DNA of 64,000 nucleotides from Kiritimatiellia bacterium (GCA_051884805.1 JBJEWA010000030.1:238-64237); one strand, 5' to 3'. Positions 4,854 to 63,061 are shown, numbered from the stretch's first letter. The notes: generated by a model from the sequence alone, not told the origin. Numbers and translations: made by a program.

Positions 4854-6275
4854 TTACCACGCCAGCGTAATCGGGCACATCAGGCGAACGGCGCCATAGC
4901 TGGTGCTGCCACAACCGCCGTGGTCCCCTTGAACATAATCAGGCAACCGCCACCGATTGCTTGTGCGCTGCTGCGTAATGGAATTGGAGCAGTCGCCGCC
5001 CCGCACAACTCTTCCGTCGCCCGCACTCTCCTCCAATCCGACGGGATCGGTCACATCGTCGGCGCTCATCTCCCCGCGAGGATCATAACTCATGCGCTCC
5101 GCCCAGTCCAGCGTCATCTCCCAAACATTGCCGAGCATGTCGTAAAAGCCCCAGTTGTTGGCCTTCTTGAGCCCTACTTCGTGAATGGTGCTAACGCCGT
5201 CTATCTGCGCGTTCATGTTGAACCATGCGATCTCATCCAACGGACCGTACAGGTTGTCCGTGCCGGGATCATCATACCACCAATAGTCGTAAGGTATGTT
5301 GGCGTCGTTGTACAACGTCGTGGCGGCACCGGCCCTGCAGGCGTATTCCCATTGCGCGTCAGTCGGCAAATCAAACCCGATGCCGTAGCGAGTGCGCATT
5401 TTCGCCAGGATCGTATCGGTCGCGCCATTCATATCGTGCGTGGCCGCATCCTTGGGCCAGCTGTTTCCCCGCATGTTGACATACGCAAACCCGGTGGCCG
5501 GATAGGCGTTGCCGCGCGGCAGGACCGGCCCCGACGTCTCCTGCGGAAAGGCCGTTCCGGCCCCAAGATAATGCCACTGCCCCTGGGTCATGGTGAACAC
5601 CGCGAGATAAAAGTCCTTGGTGAACGTCACCTTGTGCGGGGTTTCAGACTGGGCGTCGCGGCCATAACTTTCGTCGCCCTCGGCAGGAGAACCCATGGTA
5701 AAAGTGACGCCCTCGGCCGGAACCCGCCGCATAACCAGCTTGTGGGTTTTGTAGATTTCATTGTGCACGCCCTGCGTATTGTGCGCCTGACCGTGTCCCG
5801 GAAGGGCCGCTTCCGAGACATAATAGCCCGGCGGCATTGCCCCCAGCAAATCTATCACCAGGTAATCGGGCGGCGTCTCCTTGGGCCAGACCGAGACCTT
5901 GGCCGTGAAGCCGCCATCGATCTTGCCGCCGTCGGGCCACGACCGAGACGGACGCCAGTATATCTTTCTGCTCTCGGCATCCGAAGGCGCAATCAGCTTG
6001 TTGACATCGCCATAGACATTATTGAAATTCACCGCGCCGATGGACACCCCATTGGTCTGAAAGTCCACCGTAACGATTCCTTCTTCATCCAGCAGCGAGT
6101 ATTCGACCGAAACCAGCCCGGTTGCGTCTTGACGAAATTCGACCTGATCGCCCAGCCTTGGCGTGGCGGCAAGCGACGCGCCCGCGCAGAGAGCCAGCAA
6201 GAGCAAGCAGAAATGCGTTTTGTATTGCACCAACGGCGCGAAGATGTTCATCCGTGCTGATTTATGCCTATTCAC
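4854..6275 (-). CDS. FGE/SUMF1-family (formylglycine-generating-enzyme-like) domain protein, secreted
   Basis: Motifs RVVRGG, NNWGFYDMLGNVWEMTLDW and FRLMCP-like C-terminus. GTG start at 6275 with AAGGAGG 7 nt upstream. Hydrophobic signal LLLLALCAGASLA. Confidence 0.8.
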   Translation of the reverse strand: MNRHKSARMNIFAPLVQYKTHFCLLLLALCAGASLAATPRLGDQVEFRQDATGLVSVEYSLLDEEGIVTVDFQTNGVSIGAVNFNNVYGDVNKLIAPSDAESRKIYWRPSRSWPDGGKIDGGFTAKVSVWPKETPPDYLVIDLLGAMPPGYYVSEAALPGHGQAHNTQGVHNEIYKTHKLVMRRVPAEGVTFTMGSPAEGDESYGRDAQSETPHKVTFTKDFYLAVFTMTQGQWHYLGAGTAFPQETSGPVLPRGNAYPATGFAYVNMRGNSWPKDAATHDMNGATDTILAKMRTRYGIGFDLPTDAQWEYACRAGAATTLYNDANIPYDYWWYDDPGTDNLYGPLDEIAWFNMNAQIDGVSTIHEVGLKKANNWGFYDMLGNVWEMTLDWAERMSYDPRGEMSADDVTDPVGLEESAGDGRVVRGGDCSNSITQQRTSNRWRLPDYVQGDHGGCGSTSYGAVRLMCPITLAW

Positions 6276-57744: not shown

Positions 57745-59046
57745 TCACCGCGCCCCCGGAATCAGCTCCAGGATCTGCCGGATCGGCATGCACATGCCGT
57801 TCGCCTCCAGCGAGCGCCCGGCCTCGAGAATCTGCTTCGCGCACGCGTACATCGCGGGATAGGCGGCGCGCAGCAGGTGATTCGCGTAAATGACGACGTT
57901 CGCGCCCCAGTCCGCAAGTTCGGCTTCCGTGAACTGGTTGTAGGTCGTCGGTACGAGCACGAGCGGCACGGCGGAGAATTCCGCGCGGAAGCGCCGGCAG
58001 AACTCCCGGATGTCCGCACCGTCCCGGTGCTTCGAATGGATCATCACGCCGTCCGCCCCGGCGCGCACCGCGGCAAAGGCCCGCTCAAGCGCCGCGCCGA
58101 CGGAACAGCCGGCGATGAGCTCCTCGATGCGGGCGATGATCATGAAGTCCGGCGTGACCTGCGCCCGCTTGCCGGCGGAGATCTTCGCGCAGAACTCTTC
58201 CGCCGACGCCAGCTCCTGCTTCACCTCCGTCCCGAACAGCGAATTCCGCTTGAGCCCGACCTTGTCCTCGATGATCACCGCCGAGACGCCGTTGCGCTCG
58301 AGCGTCCGCACCGTGAAGACGAAGTGCTCGGGAATCCCGCCGGTGTCGCCGTCGAAGATGATCGGCTTGGTCGTGCATTCGAGGATGTCCGTCAGGGAGT
58401 GAAGCCGCGTCGTGAGGTCCACCGCCTCGATGTCCGGCTTGCCCCTTGAGGTGGAGTCCGTCAGCGAGGAGGACCACATGCCGTCAAACGCACGGACGCC
58501 GTCCTCCCCGACGACCTCGACGTTTTCGGCGATAAGGCCGGAAAGTCCGGAATGCGCCTCGATGATGCGGACGATCGGCTTGGCCGCGATCAGCCGGCGG
58601 AGCGTCTTGAGCCGCACGTCGGGGGTCGTGCCGATGCTGCGGGCGTTTTCCACCAGCGCCGTCGAGTCGATGCCCTTCGTGTAGGGAATCTCGATGAGTT
58701 CGCCGCCCCATTCCTTCAGCGCCGCGATGACCTCGGCGCGCAGGATGCTGTCCGGACCCGTCTTCCAGTCGTCGCCGTGAATGATGTAGTCCGGCCTAAG
58801 CCGGCGCAGGTTGGGCACGTAGCTCCACTCGTCCTGGGGAACGACGCGGGCGACGCCCTTCTGGTTCAGAAGCACGGCCTCGCGCTGGGCGTAGGTAAGG
58901 TAGGGCAGGCGCTTGTACTTCGCGATGGCCCTGTCGGTGAAAAGCCCGACGGTCAGGTCGCCGTACCTGGCGCCTTCCCGGATGATGTTGACGAGACCGG
59001 GATGGATGATGTCCCCGATCATGCCGAGATAAACGGTCTTGTTCAT
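57745..59046 (-). CDS. aepX: phosphoenolpyruvate mutase with N-terminal TagD-like cytidylyltransferase-fold domain
   Basis: The internal ATG gives MNKTVYLGMIGDIIHPGL...HGDDW...IPYTKGIDST, then the PEP mutase core RIIEAHSGLSGLI...WSSSLTDS...IIEDK. Confidence 0.85.
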   Translation of the reverse strand: MNKTVYLGMIGDIIHPGLVNIIREGARYGDLTVGLFTDRAIAKYKRLPYLTYAQREAVLLNQKGVARVVPQDEWSYVPNLRRLRPDYIIHGDDWKTGPDSILRAEVIAALKEWGGELIEIPYTKGIDSTALVENARSIGTTPDVRLKTLRRLIAAKPIVRIIEAHSGLSGLIAENVEVVGEDGVRAFDGMWSSSLTDSTSRGKPDIEAVDLTTRLHSLTDILECTTKPIIFDGDTGGIPEHFVFTVRTLERNGVSAVIIEDKVGLKRNSLFGTEVKQELASAEEFCAKISAGKRAQVTPDFMIIARIEELIAGCSVGAALERAFAAVRAGADGVMIHSKHRDGADIREFCRRFRAEFSAVPLVLVPTTYNQFTEAELADWGANVVIYANHLLRAAYPAMYACAKQILEAGRSLEANGMCMPIRQILELIPGAR

Positions 59047-60158
59047 GGCTTGTAGGTTACTGCGATGCCGTATTCCCGCAGGGCGGCCTTCAGGACGCGG
59101 AAGAAGGCGACGACGTCGGGGGCGTCTATCGCGCCCAGGGCGCACAGGCGGAAGGTGCGGGCCGAGCCGACCTTGCCGGGATAGATCGTGAATCCGCGCG
59201 CATAGCAGTAGTCGTGGACCTGCTCGAAGGACCAGTTCGGGTCGTCCGGATAGACGACGGACACGACCAGCCCCGCCTGATGCTCGCGCCTGACGAGATT
59301 CCTGAAGCCAAGCTCCCGAAGCCCCGCGTGGATGGCCTCGAAAACGCGCGTATGGCGCGCCCACTTGGCCGCCTCGCCCTCGGCCCAGTACTCCTTCAGG
59401 GCCTGAATCGTCGCGTAGATCGTCTGCACCGGCGGCGTGAACCGCATCTCGCCCGTCCTTTCGAAGCCATCGTACTGCAGGAAGAGGTTGCAGTAGTACG
59501 ACCGCAGCGGATAGGCGGCGGACGCCCGGATGAGGTCCTCGCGGCCGATGACGAACGACAGCCCCGTCATCGACTGCAGCCCTTTCTGCGCCGAGGCAAA
59601 GAGGAAGTCCACGTTGTCCCGGACGATGTCGATCGGCCGCATCGCGTAAGTCGAGGTCGTGTCGACGACGAAGGTGCAGCCGTGCCGGTGGGCGACCGCG
59701 CCGATCTCGCGGATCGGGTTGAGGACGCCGGATCCCGTCTCATGGTGCGTCGTGTAGACGACGGCGACCTCGGGATCGGCCGCCAGCGCGGCCTCGACGG
59801 ACGCCGGATCGATCGGCACCTCAATCGGCAGCCGCAGGTCCAGGCAGGGCAGGCCGTAGGCCGCGCACACCTCCGCGCCGCGCGACGAGTACGCGCCGTT
59901 GTCGGCGATGAGGATCTTCTTCCCCGCCGGCAGCAGCGAGTTGATGCAGACGTCGATGTTGACCGTGCCCGAGCCGCAGAAGAGAACCGCCGTATGGCGT
60001 TCGTCGCCGTGCACGACCCGCACGAGATCGCGGCGAAGCGTCTTCATGAGGCCGGCAAATTCCTTTTCGCGCGGACAGATGTCGGGCACGACCTGCGCCA
60101 TCTTGACCGAATCGGTCGTCGTCGCCGGGCCCGGATTCAGGAGTATGTTGCGTTGCAT
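59043..60158 (-). CDS. phnW: 2-aminoethylphosphonate:pyruvate aminotransferase
   Basis: The internal ATG gives MQRNILLNPGPATTTDSV. The SAQKGLQ segment holds the PLP lysine. ATGA overlap with the aepX start. Confidence 0.85.
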   Translation of the reverse strand: MQRNILLNPGPATTTDSVKMAQVVPDICPREKEFAGLMKTLRRDLVRVVHGDERHTAVLFCGSGTVNIDVCINSLLPAGKKILIADNGAYSSRGAEVCAAYGLPCLDLRLPIEVPIDPASVEAALAADPEVAVVYTTHHETGSGVLNPIREIGAVAHRHGCTFVVDTTSTYAMRPIDIVRDNVDFLFASAQKGLQSMTGLSFVIGREDLIRASAAYPLRSYYCNLFLQYDGFERTGEMRFTPPVQTIYATIQALKEYWAEGEAAKWARHTRVFEAIHAGLRELGFRNLVRREHQAGLVVSVVYPDDPNWSFEQVHDYCYARGFTIYPGKVGSARTFRLCALGAIDAPDVVAFFRVLKAALREYGIAVTYKP

Positions 60159-60195: not shown

Positions 60196-61329
60196 TCAGC
60201 GGGCGGAAAACGTCGCCATGAACAGCTCCTTGTTCGCCTGCGGCGGCTCTTTCGGGCGGCCGAGGTCCTTGCGCGCCCCCTTGGCGACGCGAAGCTCGAG
60301 GAATCGCGGCGCCGGGCGGCCGGACGGACGCGAGAACGGCAAGTCGGGCGACCGGACAAGCTCGTAGCCGCAGGCCGCCGCGACGGCGGAAAGGTCGATT
60401 GCGCCGCCGACCGTCGGCTGGCCGCCGACGGAATCATGCGCCGCGTTGTTCAGGACGACGTGCGTCAGGTTCGGGCAGGCCGACTGGCCGACGATCGCCA
60501 GGCTCCCCATCTGCATGATCGCCGCACCGTCGCCGTCGAGACAGACCACCTGGCGGTCCGGCCGCGCCCTGGCGATGCCCAGGGCGATCATCACGGCGTG
60601 TCCCATCGAGCCGACCGTCAGGAAATCGTGTCCGTGTCCTTCCCCGCGGCGAACGCGCGTCTCGTACAATTCGCGCGAGATCATGCCAGTCGTCGCAACC
60701 ACCGCGCACGACTGCGGCAGCGCGTCAAGCAGCCGCTCGATCGCCAGCTCCCGCGGCAGGTCCGCGATGTCCGGCCTGGGCGACCGAAGCCTGTACTCGC
60801 CGAAAGCGCCCCGCTTCGCCACCAGCGCCACGGGACGCCGCTCGCGCCGGGCCTGCGCGGCGGCGGCAGCGACCTGCTCGGCCCACCGCCGCCCCCGGCC
60901 GTCGGCCCCGGGCTCGTCTTCGGCCGCCAGGACTGCCGCCGGAATCCCCAGCGTCTCGAAGAGCGGCAGCGTGATCTTGCCCTGCTTCGCGTGCTGCGGC
61001 TCGTCCTGCTCTCCCGGCCTGCCGCGCCAGCCGACCAGCAGCAGCATCGGTATCGAATACACCTCCGGATCGGCCAGCGAAACGAGCGGATTCACCGCAT
61101 TCCCCTGTCCCGAATTCTGCATGTAGACGCACGCCAACCGGCCCGTCGCCAGGTAATGCCCGGCGGCCAGCCCGACCGCCCCGCCCTCGTTGGCCGCAAT
61201 CACGTGCCTGGCCGCGCAATGGTCGGTGACGTAGGCGCAGAAGTTCTTGAGCAGCGAATCGGGTACGCCGCAGAAGAAGTCCACGCCGGACGACTCCAGG
61301 GATGAAACGAATTCCTCGACCTCGATCAT
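60196..61329 (-). CDS. aepY: phosphonopyruvate decarboxylase (ThDP-dependent)
   Basis: The internal ATG gives MIEVEEFVSSLESSGVDFFCGVPDSLLK. LDGDGAAIMQMG...NN is the ThDP motif. Confidence 0.85.
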   Translation of the reverse strand: MIEVEEFVSSLESSGVDFFCGVPDSLLKNFCAYVTDHCAARHVIAANEGGAVGLAAGHYLATGRLACVYMQNSGQGNAVNPLVSLADPEVYSIPMLLLVGWRGRPGEQDEPQHAKQGKITLPLFETLGIPAAVLAAEDEPGADGRGRRWAEQVAAAAAQARRERRPVALVAKRGAFGEYRLRSPRPDIADLPRELAIERLLDALPQSCAVVATTGMISRELYETRVRRGEGHGHDFLTVGSMGHAVMIALGIARARPDRQVVCLDGDGAAIMQMGSLAIVGQSACPNLTHVVLNNAAHDSVGGQPTVGGAIDLSAVAAACGYELVRSPDLPFSRPSGRPAPRFLELRVAKGARKDLGRPKEPPQANKELFMATFSAR

Positions 61330-61337
61330 GCCTGCTC

Positions 61338-62294
61338 CTACAGCGAGAGCGACTTTTCCAGCGCCCTCAGGTCCTCGACCGTGTCGCATTCGACGATCTC
61401 GCCCGGATGCACCTCGTGAATCGTGAGGTCAAGCCCGTCCCGGACGAGCCGGTCGACGACATCGTCCCAGAAGAGCTGGGCGTTTTCCGGCTTGCTGGCC
61501 GCATCCAGCACCGCAAGGGCGACCCGCGCCGCGTCCGGCTGCTTGAAGTAGCTGATGCCGACCATGTTGAAACAGTCCCGCCCGCCCTTTCCGACGCGCG
61601 TGATGCGGCCTTCGGACGTCTCGAAGACCCAGTCGTCGGACTTGCCCGGAATGAACTTGCCGAAATAGCCGGAATGCTCGAGCGGCCGGCAAAGCAGCGT
61701 CTCCGACGGCACGAACAGGTCCGCCTCGCAGACGAAGCAGTCCGCCGACGCCATCTGCGCCGCGGCGGCCGCAATCGAACTGATGTTGTTCTTGGTCCGG
61801 TACGCGCCGTTTTCGATGAGCCGCACCTGCGGAAAGCGCTTCGGCAACTCCCTGAACTGCTCCTTCCTGTACCCGACGACGACGTAGACGTCGTCCACCC
61901 CCCGCCGCGCGAGCGCCGCCAGCACCGTCTCGATGAGCGGACGCCCGAGCACCGGCACCAGCGGCTTCGCCGTCCGGTCGGTGAGCGGCCTCATCCGCGA
62001 GCCCAGCCCGGCCGCCATCAGGATCGCCACCTCGTGGCGGCGCCCCGAACGCTTCACCAGCACCTGCTGCCCTTCCGCGCTCAGCTCCGGCGCAAAGGCC
62101 ATGTCCAGCGCCTTCGAGAACTTCGCCGCAGTCGTGAAGGAGATGTTGACGCACCCGGAAAGCACCTTGGTCACGTACGGGCGCGAAACCCTGAGCCGCC
62201 GCGCCAGCTCGGACTGCGTCATGTCGCGCTCCTGCATCCGGCCGACGATCTGCTTCAGGAAATCCTGACTCGCCCTGTTGATCGTTCGCTTCAT
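61338..62294 (-). CDS. fusion of an XRE-type HTH domain and a LicC/MobA-like nucleotidyl(cytidylyl)transferase (candidate PntC-type phosphonate cytidylyltransferase)
   Basis: MTQSELARRLRVSRPYVTKVLSG is the HTH. AILMAAGLGSRMRPLTDRTAKPLVPV is the NTP-transferase G-loop. Confidence 0.75.
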   Translation of the reverse strand: MKRTINRASQDFLKQIVGRMQERDMTQSELARRLRVSRPYVTKVLSGCVNISFTTAAKFSKALDMAFAPELSAEGQQVLVKRSGRRHEVAILMAAGLGSRMRPLTDRTAKPLVPVLGRPLIETVLAALARRGVDDVYVVVGYRKEQFRELPKRFPQVRLIENGAYRTKNNISSIAAAAAQMASADCFVCEADLFVPSETLLCRPLEHSGYFGKFIPGKSDDWVFETSEGRITRVGKGGRDCFNMVGISYFKQPDAARVALAVLDAASKPENAQLFWDDVVDRLVRDGLDLTIHEVHPGEIVECDTVEDLRALEKSLSL

Positions 62295-62301
62295 CGCCTC
62301 T

Positions 62302-62330
62302 GTTAACCTTTAGGTTGCGCATAGGTTAAC
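62302..62330. promoter_or_regulatory. palindromic candidate operator GTTAACCT-N13-AGGTTAAC, with an inner AGGTT half-site
   Basis: Lies 8-36 nt upstream of the HTH-NTase ATG and abuts its GAGG ribosome-binding site. Confidence 0.5.
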
Positions 62331-62398
62331 ATATCGGGTTACGCCTGTCAACCGCCTGCAGGCGCACAAGGCCGGCAAGCCGCCGCGCTTCGCGCCGG

Positions 62399-63061
62399 TC
62401 AATGCTCGCCGTCGGCCGCGAAATCGACCTTTTCGCAGCTGCACGCGGCCTTGAAGTCGTAGAAACGGTTGCGGCCCTCGCAGCCGGTCACGCCGGCATG
62501 GAACGTGGCGGGGATCTCCGGATTCTCGTAGCCGAATCGGACGGAGCCGCATTCGACGGTCATGCGCCGGTAGAAGCGGCCCTCCTGCACCTTGACCTTG
62601 AGTTCGTAACGGCATTTCGCCTTGAACGGCGCGCGCGCATAAGCCGCAAGATACCAGCTCGGCTTGCCGTCCTTCCAGTAGTAGTGCCAGACGTTGATGC
62701 CCTCGTTGTAGAGCACGACCTCGATGTGCCGCTTGAACGCGTGCCGTCCCCGGTCGTCCCGGTCAAGCTCGGGCGTCAGCACGATGAGCGGCGCCATCAG
62801 ATGGTCGAAGCTCATCGTCGAAGAAACCTCGATTGTGCTGCCCGACAGCCGCCGCGGATGGACGATACTCGCGTAGACCTCGGTGACGTGGTTGGCGTAA
62901 AGCTCCTCGTCGCCAACCCCTTCCGGACACGGGTTCTCGATGTGATCGTCCTTCTGCACGAACGCGTGCGCATAGTCGAAGCGCATCGACTTGAACACGA
63001 TCCACTCCGCCGGATCCCACTTGCCCCTCGCAAAGTCAAACGAAATGCGCGTCGATTCCAT
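62399..63061 (-). CDS. hypothetical cytoplasmic protein (220 aa), family not recognised
   Basis: Clean ORF with a GAGGAG ribosome-binding site and a TGGTATAAT box at 63118-63126. Confidence 0.6.
   Translation of the reverse strand: MESTRISFDFARGKWDPAEWIVFKSMRFDYAHAFVQKDDHIENPCPEGVGDEELYANHVTEVYASIVHPRRLSGSTIEVSSTMSFDHLMAPLIVLTPELDRDDRGRHAFKRHIEVVLYNEGINVWHYYWKDGKPSWYLAAYARAPFKAKCRYELKVKVQEGRFYRRMTVECGSVRFGYENPEIPATFHAGVTGCEGRNRFYDFKAACSCEKVDFAADGEH

Follow-up and report, generated by a model that had tools for sequence, protein, structure and literature searches.

Does an enzyme of phosphonate biosynthesis also switch off the operon that encodes it? The question is raised by a 64,000-nucleotide stretch of DNA from a Kiritimatiellia bacterium (GCA_051884805.1, JBJEWA010000030.1:238-64237; hereafter the window), in which the first gene of a phosphonate cluster, on the minus strand at 61338..62294, joins an XRE-type helix-turn-helix (HTH) domain to a LicC/PntC-type cytidylyltransferase. 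A preliminary description of this DNA had proposed that the protein represses its own cluster from a palindrome over its ribosome-binding site, possibly in response to CTP, 2-aminoethylphosphonate (AEP) or CMP-AEP. Our analysis favors, with a probability of roughly 0.6, an autorepressor specific to this locus that is fused to an active PntC, with simple negative autoregulation of the AEP operon. What appears to be the HTH family's own operator lies before the fusion gene, and the enzyme thus probably represses the operon that encodes it. Judged from the sequences compared, support for this specific operator is unusually clear and its taxonomic range is narrow.

The fusion itself appears to be genuine. 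The gene is a single open reading frame (ORF) whose translation gives a protein of 318 aa (P0001). Residues 20-64 (62103..62237, minus strand) match Pfam HTH_3 (PF01381) at 35.2 bits against a cut-off of 23, and HTH_26 likewise scores above its cut-off. An AlphaFold model with an overall predicted local distance difference test score (pLDDT) of 83 has a four-helix N-terminal domain, a loose linker and a confident enzyme domain. The HTH is all-helical, with helices at residues 2-22, 27-34, 38-46 and 53-62 and pLDDT values of 72-88. The flexible linker, placed at residues 70-86 (62037..62087, minus strand) from the model pLDDT, the nonsynonymous and synonymous differences (pN and pS) and alignment A4, falls below a pLDDT of 50 at residues 70-84, i.e., it is disordered in the model. 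In alignment A4 its counterpart is the variable C-terminal tail of a stand-alone HTH protein, described below, together with the N-terminal extension of PntC. With the Pfam NTP-transferase matches and a full-length alignment to LicC, these results bear out the earlier statement that an XRE-type HTH is joined to a complete NTP-transferase domain.

A word-indexed search returned about 22 clusters (90% identity) of further fused orthologues with HTH_3 and NTP-transferase domains, at 70-82% identity. Their sources are labeled as Kiritimatiellae/Kiritimatiellia metagenome-assembled genomes (MAGs), RUG rumen bins and a yak-rumen MAG. Across seven orthologous genes, the ratio of nonsynonymous to synonymous substitution (dN/dS) is 0.13-0.43 for the HTH, below 1 in every computable pair, with synonymous sites saturated in pairs among the most diverged loci. 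The enzyme part has a dN/dS of 0.05-0.22, and over the 16-residue linker pN is about equal to pS, as in near-neutral evolution. The preliminary description had allowed that the N-terminal domain might be an annotation artefact, with translation starting at an internal methionine. We rejected a start at M93, since the HTH is under purifying selection and M93 lies inside the first β-strand, VAILMAAGLG, upstream of which all unfused relatives begin. The selection on the HTH and the about 22 further fused clusters indicate that this is one polypeptide in which a DNA-binding domain and an enzyme are genuinely translated together. Identity of the HTH with the HigA antitoxin was also rejected (29.5 bits against a cut-off of 47.7, with a toxin gene not found alongside), and a second HTH paralogue of this type was not found in the bacterium's own genome. 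A homodimer prediction for the full-length protein scored 0.18 against a mark of 0.42 and was counted neither way.

Metagenome and genome contigs were scanned with the N-terminal 100 residues of the fused-protein alignment, which returned about 30 loci. Most of these match only residues 3-71, at 49-64% identity to the query, and the ORFs concerned encode stand-alone proteins of 76-100 aa (about 85 aa) that lack a sensor domain. The aligned stand-alone proteins share 42-48% identity with the window's own protein over residues 1-71, and the recognition helix SRPYV.KVL and the subsequent MDF.P.L motif are invariant across fused and stand-alone forms. These proteins come from MAGs of related rumen Kiritimatiellia and Lentisphaerae. 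Of the 10 stand-alone loci examined with usable flanks, eight lie among surface-glycan or phosphonate genes, flanked by GT2, RmlA, RmlC, RmlD, NDP-hexose dehydratase, LicD, Glyphos_transf, GtrA or CyTase-Ppm, the last a cytidylyltransferase-like domain fused to phosphoenolpyruvate (PEP) mutase. At locus L036 the stand-alone HTH gene directly follows a CyTase-Ppm gene, and in CADCOC010000064 it heads a cluster with an unfused PntC approximately 4 kb downstream. The fusion thus unites two genes that are elsewhere neighbors in one locus.

Most stand-alone genes are preceded by a strikingly conserved sequence, and the conservation does not extend to the DNA further up. Their promoters read cTTGACA, 4-5 nt, GTAAC(C)-N4-(G)GTTAC, and then TACACT or TACAAT overlapping the right half, with the start codon about 7 nt later; the arrangement of TTGACA, 16-bp palindrome and TACACT/TACAAT, with about 7 nt to an ATG or GTG, was observed before the stand-alone genes of L018-L035, L050 and L052. 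The 16-mer site lies at -26..-11 or -27..-12 in 18 of 22 stand-alone genes. The predicted operator is thus placed inside the -35/-10 spacer, and the mRNA is probably leaderless. The stand-alone protein appears, from this arrangement, to be a repressor acting on its own promoter via the 16-bp palindrome.

The same palindrome recurs twice before the fusion gene, all on the minus strand. Site O2, GCAACC-TAAA-GGTTAA (62303..62318), matches GTAACC-N4-GGTTAC at 10/12 positions, lies 9-24 nt before the ATG and adjoins the ribosome-binding site GAGG (62297..62300; 2 nt before the ATG-proximal CG). Site O1, GTAACC-N5-TGTTAA (62326..62342), was read from the sequence as the same palindrome with a spacer longer by 1 nt, and the centers of O1 and O2 are about 23-24 bp apart. 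O1 falls inside the spacer of a putative promoter, which is where the operator sits in the -35/-10 spacers of the stand-alone genes. The putative -35 element, TTGACA (62346..62351), is a perfect consensus, with cTTGACA at the matching position in most stand-alone homologues. The putative -10 element, TAACCT (62323..62328), begins 17 nt after TTGACA and was placed by position from the TACACT/TACAAT of the relatives; it overlaps the right half of O1 and the left arm of the longer palindrome discussed below.

For scoring, the operator pattern was the perfect 16-mer of L028 and L032 (GTAACC-N4-GGTTAC), counted out of 12. Ten of 12 fused upstream regions hold a match at 10/12 positions, starting 24-36 nt before the start codon, with a shuffle p of 0.004 or less in each; O2 itself has p = 0.004, and about 1.2% of background 90-nt windows score 10/12. 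GTAAC/GTTAC is the commonest 5-mer in the 70 nt before both the fused and the stand-alone genes. The first eight fused upstream regions contain 14 copies against 1.06 expected, none of 5000 shuffles had as many, and the distal flanks have 0. Within the whole 2.86-Mb genome the 16-mer is matched at 10/12 by 11 sites, none better; the 10 others are all inside open frames of at least 147 aa (eight of them more than 450 aa), O2 being the sole exception. No second regulon target was seen genome-wide, and GTAAC-N6/7-GTTAC occurs once elsewhere, fewer times than a reversed control pattern. Synteny with the relatives begins exactly at the promoter/operator region, and the genes further upstream are unrelated.

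Close unfused relatives lie mid-operon or behind unrelated flanks. Before three of them (L007, L009 and L054, two of which are mid-operon) the motifs and TTGACA are absent. At L009, the translation of a non-coding stretch before the unfused PntC (about 5870-5930) resembles the N-terminus of phosphonopyruvate decarboxylase, Ppd (..VEFFAGVPD..), and this stretch may be the remnant of a rearranged phosphonate cluster.

The preliminary description had identified the operator as a longer palindrome, GTTAACCT-N13-AGGTTAAC, at 62302..62330 (arms 62330-62323 and 62309-62302). This palindrome is indeed exact and present as a single copy in the 2.86-Mb genome; about 0.01 matches of such a palindrome are expected per window with 3 mismatches allowed. 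Its distance from the gene, given as 8 nt, also holds: the right arm ends at 62302 and the ATG begins at 62294, with seven bases between and GAGG at 62300-62297. The left arm, GTTAACCT, is the right half of O1, and the right arm, AGGTTAAC, is the right half of O2; they resemble an inverted repeat only because the right halves read GTTAAC, itself self-complementary, in this lineage. The left arm is replaced by GTTACACT in the nearest relatives, L059 and L060 (proteins 81-82% identical), which keep AACC-N4-GGTTAAC. A third half-site, AGGTT, described earlier inside the palindrome is present as a copy of AACCT at 62316-62312, and it is actually the left half of O2, the best-conserved site. The proposal of an operator therefore stands in that operator-like sites co-occur with the HTH, but these comparisons indicate that the conserved unit is the 16-bp GTAACC-N4-GGTTAC of the stand-alone HTH family, not the 8-N13-8 palindrome.

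Several observations weigh against autorepression from O1 and O2. The spacer of O1 is non-canonical, the upstream GTAAC/GTTAC elements of the relatives differ in spacing and orientation, and two fused loci, L005 and L017, are without a good 16-mer. The operator pattern was derived from and tested on the same related, previously inspected sequences, and the p-values overstate independence, as many of the loci are close kin. A consensus scan called no promoter or terminator in 61900-62700; the promoter was not called because the -10 element TAACCT matches just 3/6 positions, and the assignment made here is presumptive, by positional homology alone. With a weak -10 and no called promoter, O2 could lie over some other promoter. 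On the tree, fused and unfused forms are also interleaved, with HTH gain or loss at least 4 times among very close enzymes. The tree thus indicates that the HTH is dispensable for the enzyme, because it was gained or lost at least 4 times among enzymes that are near-identical. Five unfused PntC proteins (P0027, P0031, P0025, P0040 and P0039; alignment A2), 75-79% identical to the window's protein over the aligned part, begin with MKRT like the fused ones, and one of them retains 'MDFAPELS'. These starts and this remnant suggest in-frame deletions of the HTH.

By its conserved residues, the enzyme half appears catalytically intact. The LicC/PntC-type domain spans residues 87-318 (61341..62036, minus strand), with residues 90-201 matching Pfam NTP_transf_3 and NTP_transferase (PF12804/PF00483). 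Streptococcus pneumoniae LicC (1JYK) aligns end to end, query 89-316 to chain 27-250, at an E value of 3.5e-30. The catalytic residues are kept: the glycine-rich loop AAGLGSR (94-100), K110, D192, E302 and D304, the last three pairing with LicC D107, E216 and D218. All are invariant or nearly so in close and distant relatives (alignments A1 and A2). AEP-specific PntC has a smaller pocket, with Glu replacing LicC Asp105 and Asp192 (Rice et al. 2019, PMC6697681). In the window's protein, E190 aligns with Tde-PntC Glu104 (Asp105 in LicC), whereas D277 is Asp as is LicC D192, where Tde-PntC has Glu. The first position is PntC-like and the second LicC-like, so that the residue-level substrate call is mixed, and because residue 277 is LicC-like, the assignment of AEP rather than phosphocholine rests mainly on gene context, from which AEP is argued to be the substrate.

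That context is a phosphonate operon. The order pntC-ppd-aepT-(CyTase-ppm) is tight and entirely on the minus strand, with the fusion gene at the head, as had been described. Ppd (60196..61329; TPP_enzyme_N and TPP_enzyme_C domains) starts 8 nt past the pntC stop codon and has the same position after pntC in L003 and L005. It is followed by a class-V aminotransferase of the AEP transaminase type (59043..60155; Aminotran_5, order conserved) and by the CTP_transf_like and PEP mutase fusion, CyTase-Ppm (57745..59058; TIGR02320 PEP_mutase at 386 bits, PF01467). The whole order recurs in L001, L003 and L005. PntC thus clusters with Ppm, Ppd and AEP transaminase neighbors, and Ppm-Ppd-AEPT clusters with a PF01467 CyTase domain on Ppm are a common arrangement (PMC6697681).

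Directly upstream of the operon is a 220-aa ORF (window 62399-63061, minus strand) unrelated to the gene at the same position in L003. It was considered as a component of the system and rejected, as it is without a Pfam match and unrelated to its L003 counterpart. Elsewhere, an AA_permease-family gene directly follows PntC, fused or unfused (L001:6611-7990, L058:3968-5389, L061:1206-2624, L009:6744-8138 and L054:3654-5096), and it is absent from the window's operon; such a transporter beside PntC could import AEP or an amine. There is no CMP-AEP-using transferase within the window's AEP operon, and a LicD-family gene was not found in the bacterium's own genome, which is 89% complete. One Glyphos_transf gene lies on another contig of this genome (G000:C132:19129-20220), outside the window, and a 60KD_IMP/Glyphos_transf fusion adjoins PntC in L007 and L059.

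In the mechanism we propose, the C-terminal LicC/PntC-type part would make CMP-2-aminoethylphosphonate for cell-surface decoration, and the N-terminal part would be a complete copy of the small XRE-type repressor. Through this HTH the fusion protein would bind O1, in the TTGACA-N17-TAACCT spacer, and O2, just before the ribosome-binding site. Occupancy of both would block transcription of pntC-ppd-aepT-ppm, and the fusion would tie the dose of the regulator to the dose of the enzyme. What is inferred in this scheme is that the protein binds DNA, that it acts as a repressor and not an activator, where the promoter and the transcription start lie, and that the substrate is AEP.

A more elaborate version would have CTP, AEP or CMP-AEP at the PntC active site alter how the protein oligomerizes or where the HTH is placed, thereby setting transcription of the whole AEP pathway. 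Such a ligand-responsive enzyme-repressor has NadR, BirA and PutA as established precedents. A repressor without a sensor is now covalently joined to a small-molecule-binding domain of its own pathway, and about 22 clusters retain the fused form, with purifying selection acting on it. We nonetheless regard ligand control as doubtful. The linker is disordered in the model and near-neutral, with no conserved interdomain interface evident and the look of a free tether; the HTH was repeatedly lost or gained among near-identical enzymes; and the stand-alone relatives carry no sensor domain. LicC and Ari-PntC are reported to be monomeric from light scattering (PMC6697681), so that ligand-induced dimerization would be without precedent in the enzyme family. 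At the other extreme, the fusion may be neutral or decaying, the stop codon between the regulator gene and pntC having been lost, the HTH irrelevant and the upstream repeats leftovers. The interleaving of fused and unfused forms, which forces at least 4 changes, speaks for this, as do the MKRT starts and the MDFAPELS remnant with the in-frame deletions that they suggest. A decaying domain, however, fits poorly with an HTH dN/dS well under 1 in every computable pair, an invariant recognition helix, and operator-like sites that 10 of 12 fused loci retain at a constant spacing from the start codon, and we consider this explanation improbable.

Autorepression is also favored over two further accounts of the HTH and its sites. 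The HTH might activate the operon, or act on other loci, instead of repressing its own operon. XRE-family proteins can activate transcription, which was counted for this possibility, and the promoter is weak by consensus. Against it, the sites fall within the -35/-10 spacer in front of stand-alone genes and, in the window, within spacer and leader, all classical positions for repression; only one HTH of this type is in the genome, and no other intergenic operator copies were found there. Activation or action elsewhere therefore seems very improbable. Alternatively, the palindrome may act as RNA, as a 5'-leader hairpin affecting translation or as the terminator of the upstream gene. Its 8-bp arms pair at -10.9 kcal/mol and the right arm adjoins GAGG, but the fold has a z of only -1.56 and 16 of 200 shuffles fold equally well, and since the hairpin is no better than shuffles we rejected this account, giving it almost no credence. 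A T-run is also absent, no terminator came out of the scan, the closest relatives do not have the arms as an inverted repeat, and the left arm would be untranscribed if transcription starts after TAACCT.

The spread of the fusion, which the preliminary description had left to be established, proved narrow. An exhaustive HMMER search of 1.84 billion representatives found the XRE-type fusion nowhere outside the 50%-identity cluster of the query, and 300 other representative genomes of the class contained no fused orthologues and only two unfused matches. The fusion had also been put forward as uncharacterized. No description turned up in literature searches on HTH or winged-helix fusions to LicC/cytidylyltransferases or on regulators of AEP biosynthesis, which agrees; on the other hand, HTH and LicC-type fusions are not unique, as MarR-like winged-helix ones exist. 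The XRE-PntC fusion is therefore an undescribed, modest variant of enzyme-regulator fusions, confined to one small clade.

To our knowledge, almost nothing is known of how bacteria control phosphonate (AEP) surface decoration. The locus offers a concrete candidate regulator-operator pair, a 16-bp palindrome and a domain of about 70 aa, in a lineage of abundant, uncultured gut and rumen bacteria. It also offers a natural series, from separate genes in one cluster to fused genes to deletion of the regulator, that is useful for the origin of enzyme-regulator fusions. The scope is narrow, with one 50%-identity cluster and no cultured host known. If the ligand-responsive version were true, the protein would be the first known regulator of phosphonate cell-surface decoration that senses a metabolite, and a recent, naturally repeated case of a sensor-less repressor gaining a ligand-binding domain from a neighboring enzyme.

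Among known systems, the closest to the regulator half are the stand-alone XRE proteins, which share the 16-bp palindrome, its distance to the start codon and an identical recognition helix. Their genes look leaderless, whereas the window's gene has a GAGG site, the extra upstream O1 and an attached 230-aa enzyme. The enzyme half shares its fold and motifs across the catalytic domain with Ari-PntC, the PntC domain of Tde1415 and S. pneumoniae LicC, to which the window's protein adds an N-terminal XRE HTH of about 70 aa and a linker. The published survey of these enzymes describes many enzyme fusions and no regulators, and the terms 'helix', 'regulat...' and 'DNA-binding' are absent from its text (PMC6697681).

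The winged-helix-LicC proteins, of about 300 aa and common among the distant relatives sampled, likewise carry an N-terminal DNA-binding-type domain of about 65 aa on a LicC-type enzyme. MarR_2 matches 13 and HTH_24 matches 12 of 40 scanned representatives of about 300 aa. Members that were looked up are labeled Clostridiales and Erysipelothrix, and the two contexts examined adjoin ABC importers, not Ppm. Their DNA-binding domain is a winged helix rather than of the XRE class, which points to an independent fusion event, and with both kinds in existence the combination of a DNA-binding domain and a LicC-type enzyme arose more than once. Neither annotation nor the papers searched remark on the combination, and those papers give no characterization of the winged-helix proteins either. 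Both contexts have the gene directly beside an ABC importer of substrate-binding protein, ATPase and permease, as at L062:7001-7906 (Clostridiales CHKCI006; the context of P0128), and P0167 apparently holds an ABC permease segment, a winged helix and LicC in one protein. A winged-helix-LicC with an ABC importer may form a scavenging-and-activation module with its own regulator domain.

By analogy, the window's protein also resembles NadR (HTH, NMN adenylyltransferase and kinase) and BirA (winged helix and biotin ligase), each of which has an N-terminal DNA-binding domain on a nucleotidyl-transferring pathway enzyme and a palindromic operator at the promoter of the regulated operon, the counterpart of which here would be the predicted O1 and O2. 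NadR is an HxGH-type transferase and BirA has the biotin ligase fold; neither is homologous to the window's protein. NadR and BirA each take the ligand of their enzyme as corepressor. These two proteins couple ligand to DNA binding, whereas the linker of the XRE-PntC fusion looks, in the predicted model, like a free tether.

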